From Candidatus Thorarchaeota archaeon (GTDB lineage Archaea; Asgardarchaeota; Thorarchaeia; Thorarchaeales; Thorarchaeaceae): 55,820 bases of DNA. Made by a program: the position numbers and the translations under genes. Below the pieces are notes generated by a model. It did no database searches and was not told the origin of the DNA. It saw only the letters and a program-made list of their open reading frames with translations. Location of the stretch: NCBI GenBank assembly GCA_038893995.1, contig JAWAQK010000010.1:1-55820 (forward strand), in the 5' to 3' direction. Position 1 is the stretch's first letter. Each line of letters starts with the position of its first letter. Positions 1 through 7,716 of the stretch are shown in pieces.

Positions 1-672
1 TGTGGCGGTCAGATGCGTGACAGGCTGCGAGAGCCCTGTCGAGAGCCTCAGTGCCAGTGACCAGTCTGAACGGTCCCAGAACTCGATGTCTCCGAGACTC
101 GTGCCTATGAAGACGAATCGGTCATTGCCGGAGATGACGGTGGCCTGTTTCGTTTCCAGTTTCTGGATCTCGGTGGGTGGCTGATTGGGTAGATGTCTCC
201 AGGCGCAGGGCTGTTCCTTCTTTGGCAGTGTCACGATTGTCTCACCGTCAGTCCACATCGAGGTGATCTCGGCCCTGTGAAGCTGCCAGCTGGAGGCATC
301 GTGGTCTGCACGGCCAATGGCCAACATGCGTCCGTCGTCCGAACCTATGTACAGATGCTGCGGCGTCATGACTGACGAACAGGCGTTACAAGACAGCTCG
401 AACCATCCCACCATTCCCCATGTGGACTTTCGCCAGAGGTGGATACGCTTCTGGGTCGTCACGAATATGTCCTGACCGTCAACGTGGATGGAAACCAACG
501 GACTGGAGAATCCCTCGAGTCGCATCACTCTTGCGAATTCGTCCTTCGGCCAGACCCTCACCCTCATGTCACGACAAGCCGCGTAGACCATATCGGAGTC
601 ATGCGTGACATACAAGGCCTCCACATTGACCTTTCCCCCGACCAGACTCGTGACATCGGCCACGTCTGACAT
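1..672 (-). CDS. WD40-repeat beta-propeller protein (3' end beyond left edge)
   Basis: Not in the ORF track. My translation of the minus strand from ATG at 672 (AAGGGGT just upstream) is open to position 1: MSDVADVTSLVGGKVNVEALYVTHDSDMVYAACRDMRVRVWPK...IFVTTQKRIHLWRK...LYIGSDDGRMLAI...FVFIGTSLGDIEFWDRSDW. It shows ~40-aa repeats of the hhhGxxDGxhxhW(D/K) type. Confidence 0.8.
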   Translation of the reverse strand, partial: MSDVADVTSLVGGKVNVEALYVTHDSDMVYAACRDMRVRVWPKDEFARVMRLEGFSSPLVSIHVDGQDIFVTTQKRIHLWRKSTWGMVGWFELSCNACSSVMTPQHLYIGSDDGRMLAIGRADHDASSWQLHRAEITSMWTDGETIVTLPKKEQPCAWRHLPNQPPTEIQKLETKQATVISGNDRFVFIGTSLGDIEFWDRSDWSLALRLSTGLSQPVTHLTAT

Positions 673-983
673 ACCCCTTGAAACGCAAGCAACCACGGTT
701 CGACTCTGTCCAAATTAAAGATATTTGGGGGTGTCACTCATGGTTCGTCAAGTGTGGAACGACAGTCGGAAGGCACTCCTGGCTAGGCATTGTCATCGGG
801 CCTCCGATACCATCATCACGTCGTGGGGACAAGGATGCTTGTCTGATGGAGGTCTGGGACGGAGGTCCCAGGAGGGCTGGTAATGACAGGCGGAACAGAC
901 TTAAAGAGGGAAGGACCCACGTTCCCACATCAAGCGGAGGTAGGCTCTTGGATTCCCGTGCATGGAGACTGGAACTCGATAAC

Positions 984-3635
984 GTGGCCGAGATAAAGAC
1001 ACTGCTACTGTCCGTCGACAAATCGGCGGAGGAGCAGCTCGAGCGTCAGGTCCGACACCTATATGACACATTCGCCAACCTGAGCAGGACGGAGAATGAT
1101 CTTGCCCTCGCAGGAGTACTCAAGAAGCGCAAGATCCAGGCCCAGTATGAGAAGATCCAGAGTCAGCTTCAAGACGACTTTGAACGCTTTGTGAGGGACC
1201 TCGGTGAGAGATTCAGACGACTCCACCGCGACGCAGTGACATTACTACCCCGGATCCGGCAGCTGCGGCCCAGCGACCCAACAGAGTTCGCGACCATGAC
1301 TCCTCCTGCAGTGAATGTCGGAGACTCGAACGACGCAAAGGCGCTGCGGGAATTTGCAGAAGCGTTTGCAAAGAGGTATGGCACAGTCTATCAGGCCATT
1401 GCTCGAGACACCAAGACGCTCCTAGAGGAGAACAAACGCATCGTCGAAACCTACGAACGTCACGTGACTATCGACAGAAAGGAGGTCTCAACGACAATAT
1501 CACTGCAGGACATTGGTCCCCTCGCTCTCTCGGAGATGATCACTATCAACGACAAGCTGAGAGCGGAACGTTCCTACCTCGACAGCCGAAAGGGCGAGGT
1601 CGGGCACATGCTTGGTGCCTCACTGATGTCTGACATTGAGAGTCTTCAGGCATTTGTCGAGACAGCGTCAAGGTTTGGACTCGACCTTCCGATTGACTTC
1701 TCTCAGAAGTTGCACTCGTTGGCAAGACAGGCATCGACCGCCACCGACCTGACCACTCAGCTGAGTCTTGAGGGCCAATTGAGCAGTGCCCGTGACCAGA
1801 TGGCAAGTCTGCTCAGAGACCGGATCATCAATATGAAGCACGAGGTCACTCAGAAGATTGTAGCAGGTGGAATTCCCACCACATCGGACATTCTTCCCAC
1901 ACCGCCACAGCTCTCGGTCGAAACCAAGGATGTTCCCAACCTACTCTCAGCATATCAGAAGATGCTCGAATGGGAGGGCCAGGTGAGGCTCGCGCTGAAG
2001 GAGAAGGTCGAGGACCTCATCGACGAGATCGCCGTGGCGCTCGATTTCCCTGCTGACGCAGGCATCGTGGACCTTCCCGGAACGGCACAGTTCGTGATGG
2101 ACAGCAGGAACTCGCTCGGAACTGCGGACATCGACACGCTCGTCAAGACCTACCTCAAGGCCAGGTCCATCCGAGATGAACTGAGGAAGAACATAACTGA
2201 GAGGATAAGAGAGTACATCCAAAAATTCCAGGAGCTTGCAAGCTCGGCCGATAGAGTACTGGATTACGCGCAGCTGAGCAAGAAGGTCCCCAAGATCGAG
2301 GAAACTGAGGGTACCATCGCCTATCTGCTCCAGTCTCTGACAAGTCTGAAGTCTGCAGTGGACAGCGGCGTTGCCACCTTCCGCAACGCATGCCTGCAGG
2401 AATTGGATGCAATAGTAGAGGACCTACAGACCATCAAGCCGGCCTACGCCGAGATCTTTGTCCCCATAATCACAGACCTTGAGGACAGCGAGTCGCGTAT
2501 CAAGCAGATGGATGACTTCAGCAAGATCCGCCTCGAGATGAGGACGATAAAGGACACCATACTTGTCAAGGCAAAGGAGGCTATTGAGAACCTCAGGTAC
2601 CGATTGGGTGTCAAGATCAGACTCGCGGCAGCCAAGCTGATGGGCGCGGGTGTAGAGATACCCCCAGAGGTACAGGAAGGTATCACTGAGCTGAACAGCG
2701 TGGGCCTCGGCTCCGAGAACGTATTCAGCCTTCCGTCGGTCGCACGCAAGATGATAGAGGTCTACGAGAAGAAGATCAGCTCGAAAGTCATTGCTCAACT
2801 GAACGCGAGTGTCACAGGCCTGATGGAGTCACTGAAGCGGGCACAGTCCATAGGCGTGGACGTGGACAAGGAACTGGAGCTCCTTGAGAGCATCAAGAAC
2901 TCGCCCTCCGACGAGTTGGAGAGGGCTGCAGAAGACTTCGACAAGCTCATGAACCTGACCACGTCGCAGATGCTCCACAGAAAGATCAGGATACGGGCAG
3001 ACCAGGCCTATGTCCAGCTCAAGGGTGCACTCTCTGTCTTTGAGCAGCTCGGAATGTCGGACCTGGTGGAGCGGCTCAATGTGCTGATAGAGAAGGTCCC
3101 AGAGCAGCTCGAGAAGGAGTCCAAGCACGTCAACGAGGCACTAGAAGTATGTCTTACACTTGCAAACATCCAGGACGAGATGCTGAAGGTCATCAAGACC
3201 ATGTCGGTCAAGGATGGCGAGCGCCATGACAAGGAGATCCGACAGCGAAGCAAGTACTATCCCACCATAGAGCGGGTATACCTGAAGCATCCCAAGGAAT
3301 TCTCACGACTAGTATTCGACCTTGACCGGATGAAGGAGCTTGAGAAGTCCTTGCAGGAGTCCACCACTTTGGACCAGGCACTGGGTCGGTTCACGGAGTT
3401 GAAGGCCCTGAGGAGCAGCTGGCTTGAGAAGGCAGAGAAGATGGACGACTGGCATAAGTCCCTGAAGATGTTTCTGACAGGATACAGCCCTACTGCGCCC
3501 CCGGACCAGCGCGAGAAGTTCCTTGACGAGACGTCCAAGAAGATCCGTGACACATACGGTAGAGAAGACATCAGTACATATCTCATATGGGCACTCAGGG
3601 AGCTCACCCTCTCAATGAGCGGAGCCAAGCAGTGA
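984..3635 (+). CDS. large all-alpha coiled-coil/helical-rod protein (~880 aa), unknown function
   Basis: ORF 678..3635, but the first ~100 codons look non-coding. In-frame GTG at 984 (VAEIKTLLLSVDK) lies downstream of a TATA-like CTTAAA at ~900. E/K/L/Q/R-rich heptad-like sequence throughout, with no P-loop or TM segment. Start is uncertain. Confidence 0.75.
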   Translation: MAEIKTLLLSVDKSAEEQLERQVRHLYDTFANLSRTENDLALAGVLKKRKIQAQYEKIQSQLQDDFERFVRDLGERFRRLHRDAVTLLPRIRQLRPSDPTEFATMTPPAVNVGDSNDAKALREFAEAFAKRYGTVYQAIARDTKTLLEENKRIVETYERHVTIDRKEVSTTISLQDIGPLALSEMITINDKLRAERSYLDSRKGEVGHMLGASLMSDIESLQAFVETASRFGLDLPIDFSQKLHSLARQASTATDLTTQLSLEGQLSSARDQMASLLRDRIINMKHEVTQKIVAGGIPTTSDILPTPPQLSVETKDVPNLLSAYQKMLEWEGQVRLALKEKVEDLIDEIAVALDFPADAGIVDLPGTAQFVMDSRNSLGTADIDTLVKTYLKARSIRDELRKNITERIREYIQKFQELASSADRVLDYAQLSKKVPKIEETEGTIAYLLQSLTSLKSAVDSGVATFRNACLQELDAIVEDLQTIKPAYAEIFVPIITDLEDSESRIKQMDDFSKIRLEMRTIKDTILVKAKEAIENLRYRLGVKIRLAAAKLMGAGVEIPPEVQEGITELNSVGLGSENVFSLPSVARKMIEVYEKKISSKVIAQLNASVTGLMESLKRAQSIGVDVDKELELLESIKNSPSDELERAAEDFDKLMNLTTSQMLHRKIRIRADQAYVQLKGALSVFEQLGMSDLVERLNVLIEKVPEQLEKESKHVNEALEVCLTLANIQDEMLKVIKTMSVKDGERHDKEIRQRSKYYPTIERVYLKHPKEFSRLVFDLDRMKELEKSLQESTTLDQALGRFTELKALRSSWLEKAEKMDDWHKSLKMFLTGYSPTAPPDQREKFLDETSKKIRDTYGREDISTYLIWALRELTLSMSGAKQ

Positions 3636-3651
3636 GACAGGAGAGATTGAC

Positions 3652-5031
3652 ATGCAGAAGTCAAGAGTCAGAGAGGATGACACTGGAAAGGCAGCCGAGA
3701 TGTTTGCCATCGGCATAGGTGAGTGTGGCTCGAACATAGTTGGTAGCTACCTACTGAGAAGTCAGGAATACAAACTCCCGCCGAGAGTCAGGGGATACCT
3801 CCTGATGAATACAGACCGTACTGACCTGACGAAGGTACGTCAGAAATACAACATCCCGCGAGAGAACACGATGCTCTATGGAACGAGCGAGATAGGCGTC
3901 GGTGGTAGGTTCATGGACGGTTACAATGCAGTAGTCGAGAACAAGGACATAATCTTCGACCAGCTGAGTAACCTGGGATTTGAGGGGGTGTCCGGCTTCT
4001 GTATCTTCACCAGCCTCGGCGGAGGTACTGGATGTGGTGGTACACCAGCCCTGATTGAGCTTTTGAAACAGCGATTCCAGGAGGAAGAGGGCCGTAGGAT
4101 ATTCGTCTACGTGGTTGGTATTCTCCCATTCGAGGGCCAGAGCAGCGAGGCACTGAACTCCATATGGGCAGTATCAAAGCTACTCAGGGCTCAGCTCCAG
4201 GAGAGAGGAGCGGACCTGACGATCCTGCTCAGCAACAGGACCATGCTCAAGCGAATCTTGCAGTCGAGGACTGCCGACAGTGTAGACTACCTGCAGAGAG
4301 AGCTCAATGTGGACATTGCTGACATAGCGTCAATCGAGAAGATGGTCCCCTCGACGCTTGACGAGGCGGGAGAGCTCGAGCTTCGTACCGAGCAGGCATT
4401 TGTCGAGCTCGTCAACCCGCTGGCCCTTGATGTCATTGAGGCCATGTTGTCTCCAGGTGTCTACGAGCCCAACAAGGATGTGTTCCCAACCACCGACCTG
4501 GCCGACTATGCTCGCAAGCTCGACCCTGTCGTTGTACCCGCGCTCTACACCGACGTGGGTATAATACCAGATGCAGGGAGCATGCCACGTCAGCTCAGGA
4601 CAATGATCGACTACGCGATCAACCAGTGCTCGTACGCCGACGTAGGGACTGAACCGAATGCCGAGAGTGTGTACTACGTCTTCAGTGGTCCAAGGCACGT
4701 GTCAAAGGCAGAGTATGGAATGCATCTCAAGCAGGCACTCGAGAAGTACATTGCTCCTGGAGCTGCGATCACGCCCTGCTATGTTCAGTACAAGGATCCA
4801 AACGCCAAGACGAACCTCCTGGTGCTCCTCGGACTACCCAAGATACCCGAGCTGATACAGCTGATCAACGAGGCGACACAGCTGGTCAATCTCCACAGCG
4901 GGCCGTCTGCGCTCAAGCAGTCATGGTTCATGCGGTCGAAGGGCACGACGAGGAAGGAGCTCGTGGATGCGATAAACGACTTTCGCGAGCTGTTCAGCTA
5001 CTATATGGAACCAGGTCAGGCACTTCAGTAG
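3652..5031 (+). CDS. divergent tubulin/FtsZ/CetZ-superfamily GTPase
   Basis: T1 GIGECGSNI, T2 MNTD, T3 GVGGRFMDG, signature SLGGGTGCG, T5 LPFEG, T6 LSN, T7-like TTDLADY. Confidence 0.92.
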   Translation: MQKSRVREDDTGKAAEMFAIGIGECGSNIVGSYLLRSQEYKLPPRVRGYLLMNTDRTDLTKVRQKYNIPRENTMLYGTSEIGVGGRFMDGYNAVVENKDIIFDQLSNLGFEGVSGFCIFTSLGGGTGCGGTPALIELLKQRFQEEEGRRIFVYVVGILPFEGQSSEALNSIWAVSKLLRAQLQERGADLTILLSNRTMLKRILQSRTADSVDYLQRELNVDIADIASIEKMVPSTLDEAGELELRTEQAFVELVNPLALDVIEAMLSPGVYEPNKDVFPTTDLADYARKLDPVVVPALYTDVGIIPDAGSMPRQLRTMIDYAINQCSYADVGTEPNAESVYYVFSGPRHVSKAEYGMHLKQALEKYIAPGAAITPCYVQYKDPNAKTNLLVLLGLPKIPELIQLINEATQLVNLHSGPSALKQSWFMRSKGTTRKELVDAINDFRELFSYYMEPGQALQ

Positions 5032-5053
5032 TATATGTTGTGGAGGTCTCGAG

Positions 5054-6136
5054 TTGACAGAGAAATTCCGGCCCGAAGACATGATTGACAAGATCCTGCT
5101 GATAGAGACTCTGAACTCGACGCTGATCCATTTCATCCTGAGCTCGGAAGTCGAGGGCTCAGTGGATCCAGACCGGGTCGATTCGCTGGCGCAGGGACTG
5201 CAGCGTACGCGGAAGTGGATCGACGAGACCATCACACAAGAGGGCATTCCGCCGTCCACGTGCAACATCCTCAGTCTGATGGTCAAGCGTCTCTCTCAGT
5301 TGGAGAGTCTCCTGCCGAAGCTGTCGCAGAAGGCGAGACAGATCGAGATGAGCGGCGCTGCACAGGAGATACTCTCATTGCTAGACGGGACAGGTCCATC
5401 AACAATAGGGTCAGAGCAGGGAGCTCAGAGCGTGCCGACCGCGTCTGCAGAGACTGCTGCACCGCAACTAGTGCCCACACCACAGATCCCGACAGTCGCC
5501 ATGCCCAAGCCTGAACCGTACAGGAGGTCGGAGATCGAGGACGATATGTTCGGTCTCGTCGGACAGACCAACAACTTGATCCAGCAGTACAGCAAGAGAT
5601 GTCATGTCTTGCTCCCCGTCTTCTGGTCTGAGGTACTGAGAGAACTCCACAGGTACCGGTCTGACTCACAGTACATGTCCGACGCCATTCAGATTCCTGC
5701 AGAGATAATTGCCAAGATCGTCAGGACTCTCCTGACGGAGGCACCAGGTGCACGGCTCCTACAGGACCTCCTGAATGTCAGGGCCCAGGAGATGGCCCTC
5801 CAGCCATCCGAGAAGGAGAGGATAGAGAGGTCAGTCAGCAAGTACTTCTCAGGCCTAGAGGGCCTTCTTCGCGGCGAGCCCATTGATGTCGCCAGCAAGT
5901 TAGACGAGGCTCAGAATGCACTTGATGGCTTTGGGTGGGGAGGGCCTGAACTTGAGAAACGGCTCATCAAGAGGATCAACCAGCAGTGCCAAGAGACCTT
6001 CCAGAGTGCTGAGAGTGTCACCGACGACTATCGGAAGGTGATATACGCAGAGACCACCAAGCTTCTGTGCAAGCTTCAGCATGCAATACTTGCCGAGTCT
6101 CGTCTGACCAGCCTGATGGCAGAGATGAAGCCGTGA
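5054..6136 (+). CDS. hypothetical helical protein with Pro/Ala/Thr-rich linker
   Basis: 360-aa ORF 22 bp after the GTPase gene, GGAGGT RBS before the TTG start. Two helical regions are joined by the linker SVPTASAETAAPQLVPTPQIPTVAMPKPEP. Confidence 0.8.
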   Translation: MTEKFRPEDMIDKILLIETLNSTLIHFILSSEVEGSVDPDRVDSLAQGLQRTRKWIDETITQEGIPPSTCNILSLMVKRLSQLESLLPKLSQKARQIEMSGAAQEILSLLDGTGPSTIGSEQGAQSVPTASAETAAPQLVPTPQIPTVAMPKPEPYRRSEIEDDMFGLVGQTNNLIQQYSKRCHVLLPVFWSEVLRELHRYRSDSQYMSDAIQIPAEIIAKIVRTLLTEAPGARLLQDLLNVRAQEMALQPSEKERIERSVSKYFSGLEGLLRGEPIDVASKLDEAQNALDGFGWGGPELEKRLIKRINQQCQETFQSAESVTDDYRKVIYAETTKLLCKLQHAILAESRLTSLMAEMKP

Positions 6137-6306
6137 CTTAGGCCTCGACGAGGGGTCAGGACTGTGCCAGCCGTAGCACGAACCTCGCCACGCCGGTAGG
6201 GAGCCCTCGTACGGCCGCGTGGTCTGCAGACTGTCCTCGTCTGAGTAGGGGCCAGACATAGGTTTGTTTAAGTGCTGCAAGTCGTTTCTGTGGAACAGGA
6301 GGCCAC

Positions 6307-7716
6307 ATGATGGACCCACTTGACAGGATGTTCAACCCTAGATCGGCCGCGGTCGTGGGCGTATCGACATCGAACCCGTTCAATCCCGGGAATGTGATAT
6401 TTCGAAAGCTTGCCTTCGAGAATGGTCTAGAGACGATTCCGGTCAATCCCAAAGGGGGATTGATCGAGGGAATCCCTGCTGCAAAGTCCATCTCAGATCT
6501 CCCAGAGGGCACTGACCTGTGTGTGATATCCATCCCTGCTAGGGCGGTCCCTGATGCACTGAGAGATTGCGGTGAGAAGAAGATAAGATCCGTCATCGTC
6601 GTGTCAGGCGGATTCAGTGAGACTGGCGCTGAGGGTCAGGAACTTCAGCATCAGATAGTCGAGATTGCGAACAAGTATGGTATACGCATGATCGGTCCCA
6701 ACTGCATTGGCGTCTTTGTCCCAGAGAAGCTGGACACATTCTTTCTGCCGTCTGAACGTGTCGCAAGGACGCGCAGGGGCAATGTTGCACTCATCTCCCA
6801 GAGCGGAGGCTGGCTCGTAGAGCGCCTCGAGGAGTTTGCCGCCAGAGACGTCGGAGTCGCTGCTGCAGTGTCAATAGGGAACGCAGCACAGACCGGTGTA
6901 GCTGAACTCGTCACGTACTTTGGTTCGCAGAACTATGTGAACGCGATAGTCGCCTATGTCGAGGGCTTCGGAAAGAATGGGGGTAGGAAGTTTGTTGAGG
7001 CGTGCCGGAAGGTGACCCCTAAGAAGCCCGTGATAGTGCTCAAGGGAGGTACTACGGAGGCAGGCAACAGAGCCACTCGTAGTCACACATCATCTCTGGC
7101 TGGAGACTCGGTCGTCGCAACGGCCGCATTCAGACAGTGTGGAGTGGTACAGGCCAACGACCAGGATGAACTCATGGCCTACGCCAAGGTCTTCTCCTTC
7201 TCACAACCACCCATGAGGTCCTCACGTGTCGGAGTGATAACTGTCAGTGGTGGGCACGGTGTACTTGCCACTGATGAGGCAGCCATGTACGGTCTCGAGT
7301 TCCCACCCTTCACCGAGGAGGAGCAGGCATCGATGAGAGAGGTGATGACCCCCGAGTACCAACGGATTGCCAGCTTCGGGAACCCGGTTGACCTGACAGG
7401 TAGTGGCGCCGACATCGACTATGAGCGTGTACTCGACAGGATGCTGAAGATCGACCGCATAGATGCAGCCCTTCTACTCCTCTTGCCCTATGCCCCCGGA
7501 ATCTCTCTCCAGATTGGCGCTAGAGTCGCCAGTGTCGCCAAGCGACACAAGAAGACTGTGGTGGCCTACGTCCCGGAGCTAGACAAGTACGAGATAATAA
7601 TCCGCGGCTTTGAGATAAATGGCATACCGGTGGGCGACAGCATCGAAGAGGCAGTACAGATGCTACATGGCCTGAGAGTACGCACTCAGTTCCTTGAGAG
7701 GATTGGTGCTATCTGA
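6307..7716 (+). CDS. acdA: acyl/acetate-CoA ligase (ADP-forming) alpha subunit
   Basis: FNPRSAAVVG CoA-binding domain, PVNPK, IGPNCIG, ISQSGG, SIGN, phospho-His motif SHTSSLAG, NPVDLTG. Confidence 0.88.
   Translation: MMDPLDRMFNPRSAAVVGVSTSNPFNPGNVIFRKLAFENGLETIPVNPKGGLIEGIPAAKSISDLPEGTDLCVISIPARAVPDALRDCGEKKIRSVIVVSGGFSETGAEGQELQHQIVEIANKYGIRMIGPNCIGVFVPEKLDTFFLPSERVARTRRGNVALISQSGGWLVERLEEFAARDVGVAAAVSIGNAAQTGVAELVTYFGSQNYVNAIVAYVEGFGKNGGRKFVEACRKVTPKKPVIVLKGGTTEAGNRATRSHTSSLAGDSVVATAAFRQCGVVQANDQDELMAYAKVFSFSQPPMRSSRVGVITVSGGHGVLATDEAAMYGLEFPPFTEEEQASMREVMTPEYQRIASFGNPVDLTGSGADIDYERVLDRMLKIDRIDAALLLLLPYAPGISLQIGARVASVAKRHKKTVVAYVPELDKYEIIIRGFEINGIPVGDSIEEAVQMLHGLRVRTQFLERIGAI

Follow-up and report, generated by a model that had tools for sequence, protein, structure and literature searches.

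The three-gene locus

A 55,820-nucleotide stretch of DNA from a Candidatus Thorarchaeota archaeon (NCBI GenBank assembly GCA_038893995.1, contig JAWAQK010000010.1, positions 1 to 55,820 of the forward strand; hereafter the window) carries near its start three co-oriented genes that encode a large helical protein, a GTPase of the tubulin/FtsZ superfamily and a smaller helical protein of two domains. The window forms contig C10 in an Asgard genome of Thorarchaeota type, 2.33 Mb in size and 91% complete. Four sequencing runs match its DNA, all of them hot-spring metagenome DNA, and there is no RNA run among the four. The features on which the following account is built are these:

Gene 1 (family c0), 948..3635, + strand: about 895 amino acids (aa), all-helical, repeated three-helix bundles
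Gene 2 (family c1, protein P0002), 3652..5031, + strand: 459 aa, ATG start; tubulin/FtsZ-superfamily GTPase of the Asg.Tub group
Gene 3 (family c2), 5054..6136, + strand: 360 aa, TTG start; three-helix bundle, linker and C-terminal helical domain
Divergent intergenic region between a WD40 gene and gene 1, 697..947: AT-rich TATA-like boxes near 711-727 and 900-908

The three open reading frames all lie on the + strand and are separated by gaps of exactly 16 base pairs (bp; gene 1/gene 2) and 22 bp (gene 2/gene 3), as a first-pass annotation made from the sequence alone had described them. A Shine-Dalgarno-like GGAGAG precedes ATG 3652 of gene 2, and a similar GGAGGT at 5042-5047 precedes TTG 5054 of gene 3. 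The start of gene 1, earlier drawn at GTG 984 to give a protein of 883 aa (984-3635), is likelier to be TTG 948 (895 aa), since GGAGGT occurs at 937-942, the TATA-like CTTAAAGA lies near 900 and homologous proteins measure 896-898 aa. The boxes in the 697-947 region would make it a candidate promoter region. Downstream of gene 3 a 170-bp gap precedes the next gene, which starts at 6307.

A conserved GTPase of the Asg.Tub group

The Pfam profile Tubulin (PF00091) scores the gene 2 product at 67.5 bits over residues 17-200 (cut-off 33), which bears out its first description as a GTPase of the tubulin/FtsZ fold. The ftsZ equivalog profile of NCBIfam (TIGR00065) stays at 30 bits, below its cut-off of 295, and the Pfam search returned neither an FtsZ_C nor a Tubulin_C (PF03953) match. 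The C-terminal half of the protein runs almost residue for residue with KXH77455.1 and OLS30664.1, two Thorarchaeales sequences in the supplementary alignment of PMC9871819, and another family member, P0119, is the LC-3 sequence OLS26264.1 published in the same paper. By these alignments gene 2 is a member of Asg.Tub, the 'CetZ-like group in Asgardarchaeota' that Santana-Molina, del Saz-Navarro and Devos named in 2023 (PMC9871819) on the basis of four sequences, two of them from Thorarchaeales. In their tree, from which the monophyly of Asg.Tub apart from CetZ and tubulins is taken here, the group sits on a long stem with 100% support outside both CetZ and the tubulins, and is placed weakly (62%) beside a haloarchaeal 'Halo.Tub' group. 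Brown and Duggin in 2023 (PMC9856176) counted such Asgard proteins among the 'non-canonical tubulin superfamily proteins'. Halo.Tub includes a CetZ-like protein of Haloquadratum walsbyi (PMC9871819), which Makarova et al. in 2024 (PMC10936438) linked to an adaptin-like ESCRT system, which offers a slender hint of a membrane or sorting role for Asg.Tub.

To assess conservation of the GTPase, 22 sequences that span the Asgard phylum were aligned, giving a mean column identity of 59%. The T1 motif GxGECGxN and N195 are invariant, as are the T4 and T6 residues and the G-box GGGTGCG, in which Cys takes the S/T position of GGGTG(S/T)G; the T7 acidic residues D282 and D285, within TTDLAD, are invariant as well. 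Over its full length the GTPase shares 43-63% identity with its counterparts in five other Asgard families, to be compared with 60-64% for FtsZ1 and 43-59% for FtsZ2 of the same genomes and with only 15-30% for the products of genes 1 and 3. The GTPase is conserved as highly as FtsZ1 and FtsZ2, a level that fits a protein with many constrained contacts.

Searched against the sequences of the Protein Data Bank (PDB), the family profile found CetZ1 first (E 5e-13) and two other CetZ proteins at 2e-8 and 1.5e-7, followed by beta-tubulin (8e-7), OdinTubulin (2.5e-6), gamma-tubulin (5e-6) and AtubA (5e-5), and no FtsZ chain occurs among its top 60 PDB matches.

Two helical partners of no recognised family

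The AlphaFold2 (AF2) model of the gene 1 product, built from a 38-sequence alignment, is all helix (pLDDT 85.6, pTM 0.38), with helices of about 40 residues each arranged in successive bundles. Internal repeats are detected by hhalign between residues 176-284 and 311-415 (94% probability, E 8.6e-8), and weaker matches tie these repeats to 441-545 and 590-688. Members of the family range from 873 to 1405 aa, a spread that fits a variable number of repeats. The C-terminal end is the most conserved part of the protein and holds the invariant residues W823, H824, Y866 and L867. The protein lacks a hydrophobic segment (maximum KD19 1.10) and has no Pfam, NCBIfam or ATPase match; apart from its start, now more probably giving 895 aa, it is as first portrayed, a soluble helical protein of some 880 aa with neither an ATPase motif nor a transmembrane segment. 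Among 1.84 billion representative proteins the family profile finds 55 matches at E ≤0.001, about 45 of which are members of the gene 1 family or fragments of them. By fold, the best Foldseek match of the model in the PDB is a dynein tail at E 0.02, with PRC1 at E 0.47 and nothing convincing; the VIA wide search gave generic three-helix bundles only (Z up to 9.4), and the ESM Atlas returned only the protein's own Thorarchaeota cluster. A GCP-like identity was considered for gene 1, as was a cofactor-D-like one, and neither is backed by any match in the searches: there is no Pfam GCP match in 22 members and no GCP chain in the Foldseek result for the whole model.

In the AF2 model of the gene 3 product (pLDDT 84.4), residues 7-110 form a three-helix bundle, residues 113-147 are disordered and residues 150-360 fold into a compact helical domain with a pLDDT of about 97. 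Six Pro fall within residues 111-150, so the architecture proposed from the sequence, a 360-aa helical protein of two domains joined by a flexible Pro-containing linker, is also that of the model. The compact C-terminal domain, which ends in MKP, carries the invariant residues of the family (alignment A2: D164, P188, P231, L235, G296, E301, R303 and K359). The domains of gene 3 are unrelated to the gene 1 repeats. No hydrophobic segment occurs in the gene 2 or gene 3 protein either. For gene 3 there is no Pfam or NCBIfam match, the best Foldseek match in the PDB has E 0.27, the VIA wide search gave generic three-helix-bundle matches to residues 1-110 only (Z about 10), and the ESM Atlas gave a TM of ≤0.30 by shape and no usable match in the look-alike search. 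A cofactor-C-like identity for gene 3 is likewise backed by no match in the searches. When Pfam was run over all members of both partner families, no Pfam family appeared in more than four members and all matches were weak, and PDB profile searches with both families returned designed bundles and apolipoprotein-type noise only. Pfam, PDB sequence and fold searches thus give no convincing match of either partner to a known family.

Synteny, distribution and co-duplication

Among 25 loci from nine Asgard families, the order c0>c1>c2 is kept on one strand in 20; immediately upstream of the GTPase there is a gene 1 family member in every locus, and immediately downstream a gene 3 family member in 20. 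Eighty further loci carry Thor-, Hermod-, Borr-, Sif- and Heimdallarchaeota labels, and where enough flanking DNA is present gene 1 is upstream in 67/67 and gene 3 downstream in 77/77. Instead of the short gaps of the window, other loci show overlaps of 4-8 nucleotides between the genes. The earlier proposal of a self-contained three-gene module in Asgard archaea, for which conserved synteny had been named as the check, is therefore upheld by an order that is conserved across families. Other neighbours of the module are lineage-specific.

The trio is incomplete only in the second copy that family f22 carries (Hodarchaeales-type, e.g. CP070695), where a separate gene 1 homologue is present and gene 3 is missing. 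A 311-aa gene lies upstream of this copy and is unrelated to gene 3 (hhalign probability 0.06%); the copy also adjoins a gene for a 740-aa Rag/Arf-like GTPase. The gene 1 tree and the GTPase tree recover the same major groups, and both place the second f22 pair inside the Heimdall-group clade, from which it follows that gene 1 and the GTPase were duplicated as a unit.

In a sample of 301 Asgard genomes, sorted into GTDB-style families, the GTPase is found in 115, about a third, and is distributed unevenly:

Families in which most genomes carry the GTPase: f1 66/76; f12 15/19; f22 19/21
Families in which all genomes carry it: f16 5/5; f15 4/4; f29 2/2; f2, f6 and f8 1/1 each
Families in which no genome carries it: f9 0/68; f5 0/28; f14 0/11; f27 0/11

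The gene 3 profile matches in 114 of the 301 genomes, in the same families and nearly always adjoining the GTPase match.

How far this arrangement had gone undescribed, as was first supposed, depends on the component. The GTPase group was named in 2023, and its neighbours were remarked upon as unknown, mostly coiled-coil genes (PMC9871819); what the literature searched does not contain is the trio as a fixed arrangement, its occurrence in nine families, the joint duplication and the construction of the partners, including the repeats of gene 1.

Genomic surroundings

On either side of the operon lie the following genes:

WD40 beta-propeller gene, 1-696, - strand: divergent from the operon; cut by the contig start
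ADP-forming acyl-CoA synthetase-like gene, 6307-7716, + strand: CoA_binding_2 and Succ_CoA_lig domains; own AT-rich upstream box

Together with genes for an FMN dehydrogenase and PurN, these are the neighbours of the operon in the window, and no sepF, ftsZ or tubR-like gene adjoins it, as had been noted at first sight; FtsZ1, FtsZ2 and SepF of this genome are encoded on other contigs. The acyl-CoA synthetase-like gene is probably a unit separate from the operon. Its cluster (c3) also lies 3' of the module in six further loci, five of Thorarchaeota and one of Borrarchaeota. Three other Thorarchaeota loci (L022, L023 and L024) have a WD40 homologue of 644-656 aa in this head-to-head arrangement, which was not seen outside that Thorarchaeota family, and no Pfam MIT match was found in the C-terminal half of the Thor homologue of the WD40 neighbour. 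Five Thorarchaeota loci (L021, L022, L023, L024 and L025) have, immediately 5' of the gene 1 homologue and on its strand, a gene for a TPR protein of about 210 aa; the protein recalls BtubC, the TPR partner of bacterial tubulins, and in the window the contig ends before that position.

Genes for small GTPases of the Ras/Arf/Rag type stand at or near the module in several loci (L007, 4523-5113; L017, 4183-4770; L013, 933-1883; L004, 9377-11590), which span three lineages, namely f6/'Asgardarchaeia' and both f22 copies. This adjacency may be due to chance, given that small GTPase genes are numerous in Asgard genomes.

Comparison with known systems

The closest matches of gene 2 among proteins of solved structure are CetZ sequences (PDB 4b46, 3zid and 4b45; E 5e-13 to 1.5e-7), and CetZ resembles it further in being a tubulin-superfamily protein without a division role that coexists with FtsZ1 and FtsZ2. 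The match is limited, however, to the N-terminal ~160-180 residues, the published tree sets Asg.Tub outside the CetZ clade, and the gene context of CetZ is said to be unrelated (PMC9871819). On paper, the combination of FtsZ and its spectrin-like regulator EzrA is also similar, pairing a tubulin-superfamily polymer with a long protein of repeated three-helix bundles, but gene 1 shows neither a membrane anchor nor a Pfam match to EzrA and is not a member of that family.

BtubA/BtubB/BtubC and TubZ/TubR/TubY offer another parallel, being small operons in which a tubulin-like GTPase is accompanied by dedicated helical partners. The partners there, the TPR protein BtubC and the DNA-binding TubR, belong to other families than those found here, where a single GTPase occurs with no heterodimer, no DNA-binding gene and no centromere repeats. 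The bona fide tubulins of Asgard archaea (OdinTubulin and AtubA/B; PMC8956254, PMC13394414) share superfamily and phylum with gene 2, which in contrast to them lacks a Tubulin_C match. Genes positive for Tubulin_C occur in 7/301 genomes, in families f3, f14 and f21, and there is no Tubulin_C match anywhere in the genome that carries the window. No Asg.Tub was seen in the genomes of f3, f14 and f21, nor Tubulin_C in the 115 Asg.Tub carriers; the genomes concerned are few and related, so that this observation is no test.

A probable cytoskeletal module

We consider it reasonably probable that the three genes, as one operon, encode an Asgard-specific cytoskeletal module. In the mechanism proposed here, Asg.Tub would bind GTP and most likely polymerise head to tail, giving protofilaments in which each subunit's T7 loop completes the GTPase site of its neighbour, as happens in FtsZ, CetZ and tubulin. 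Invariance of the nucleotide-binding loops and of the T7 acidic residues fits a GTPase that polymerises. Gene 1, which its fixed adjacency, translational coupling and co-duplication mark as the putative obligate partner, would probably bind along or between the filaments as a scaffold, spacer or cross-linker, using the highly conserved C-terminal end; its construction from repeats points to a rod, a spacer or a lateral binder. Gene 3, whose conserved domain hangs on a flexible tether, looks like an adaptor: the C-terminal domain probably docks on the complex, and the variable bundle and flexible linker could reach another component. Complex prediction for the GTPase paired with the gene 3 C-terminal domain (A3 with A2:150-360) gave an ipSAE of 0.00 in two runs, a result that speaks neither for nor against binding. 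The cellular job of the module would, at a guess, be in shape, membrane remodelling or transport rather than in division. An accessory cytoskeleton rather than a divisome is suggested by the presence of FtsZ1, FtsZ2 and SepF elsewhere in the genome and by the many Asgard families without the module.

Several points weigh against this proposal. The trio is not obligatory, since the second Heimdall-group copy does without gene 3, and the module is dispensable, since it was not found in most of the Asgard families sampled (for instance f9, 0/68, and f5, 0/28). No fused forms turned up among the longer proteins, which is weak evidence. The T7 loop TTDLAD departs from NxDxx(D/E) by having Thr in the place of the Asn. 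Finally, the literature search found no experimental study, transcript data or operon study for Asg.Tub.

A bolder extension of the proposal is that Asg.Tub and gene 1 make up a third tubulin-type cytoskeleton, born within the Asgard archaea, in which a dedicated protein resembling microtubule-associated proteins, with bundle repeats in variable number, runs beside the filament and determines spacing or length. Such an ancient system would already have existed in the Asgard ancestor, independently of true microtubules, and might serve membrane shaping or transport under the control of small GTPases; in this full form we hold it to be possible and somewhat doubtful.

Alternative interpretations

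Four other explanations were weighed, each of which is less supported than a cytoskeletal module. That which survives best holds the GTPase to be a GTP-regulated subunit of a stable hetero-complex with the two helical proteins, acting as a nucleator, cap or switch and forming no dynamic filaments, in the manner of gamma-tubulin with GCP or of Misato. It would account for the constant pairing of the GTPase with a large helical protein and the duplication of the two as a pair, the very strong conservation of the whole surface would fit many fixed contacts, and the T7 loop lacks its canonical Asn. The T7 acidic residues, however, are relevant only for hydrolysis across a polymer contact and are both invariant, no GCP was recovered by Pfam in 22 gene 1 family members or by Foldseek with the gene 1 model, and the genomes of the Asg.Tub-bearing families showed no bona fide tubulin to be nucleated. 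We regard this explanation as unlikely.

A third FtsZ-like system for division or constriction, with genes 1 and 3 in place of SepF-type anchors, seems quite unlikely. Membership of the tubulin superfamily and a conservation equal to that of FtsZ1 and FtsZ2 would suit it, but the genome already has FtsZ1, FtsZ2 and SepF, the module was not found in most of the Asgard families sampled, none of the three proteins shows a segment that could bind a membrane, and the TIGR00065 score falls far below its cut-off.

Genes 1 and 3 might instead encode folding or assembly cofactors of the GTPase, comparable to tubulin cofactors, and not structural partners. Neither protein matches any tubulin cofactor in sequence or fold, and gene 1, with a repeat number that varies between lineages, suits the part of a spacer or rod more than that of a chaperone. 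The tight operon coupling is what such cofactors would lead one to expect, and the Arf/Ras/Rag-type GTPase genes near the module in some lineages recall Arl2 with cofactor D, but small GTPase genes abound in Asgard genomes and their adjacency may be fortuitous; the explanation appears very unlikely.

Segregation of DNA in the manner of TubZ, for a chromosome region or an integrated element, is highly improbable, for although TubZ systems are likewise small operons around a divergent tubulin-like GTPase, the neighbours here include no TubR-like gene or other DNA-binding family, positions 1-7000 of the window hold no tandem repeats, the context is one of chromosomal housekeeping with purine and CoA genes, and inheritance looks vertical, the gene 1 and GTPase trees sharing lineage groups.

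Significance

Work on the cytoskeleton of Asgard archaea has so far centred on actin, on FtsZ1 and FtsZ2 and on the rare bona fide tubulins. The module described here is far commoner than true tubulins, occurring in 115 as against 7 of the 301 genomes sampled, and combines conservation at the level of FtsZ with two dedicated partners that match no solved fold. Its three proteins are soluble and of ordinary size, which opens the hypothesis of a cytoskeletal role to direct biochemistry and cryo-electron microscopy, and cultured strains of Hodarchaeales, an order in which the module is seen, have been reported (bioRxiv 10.1101/2025.02.26.640444). In the trio, the prokaryotes most closely related to eukaryotes probably have a cytoskeletal system that has gone unexplored.

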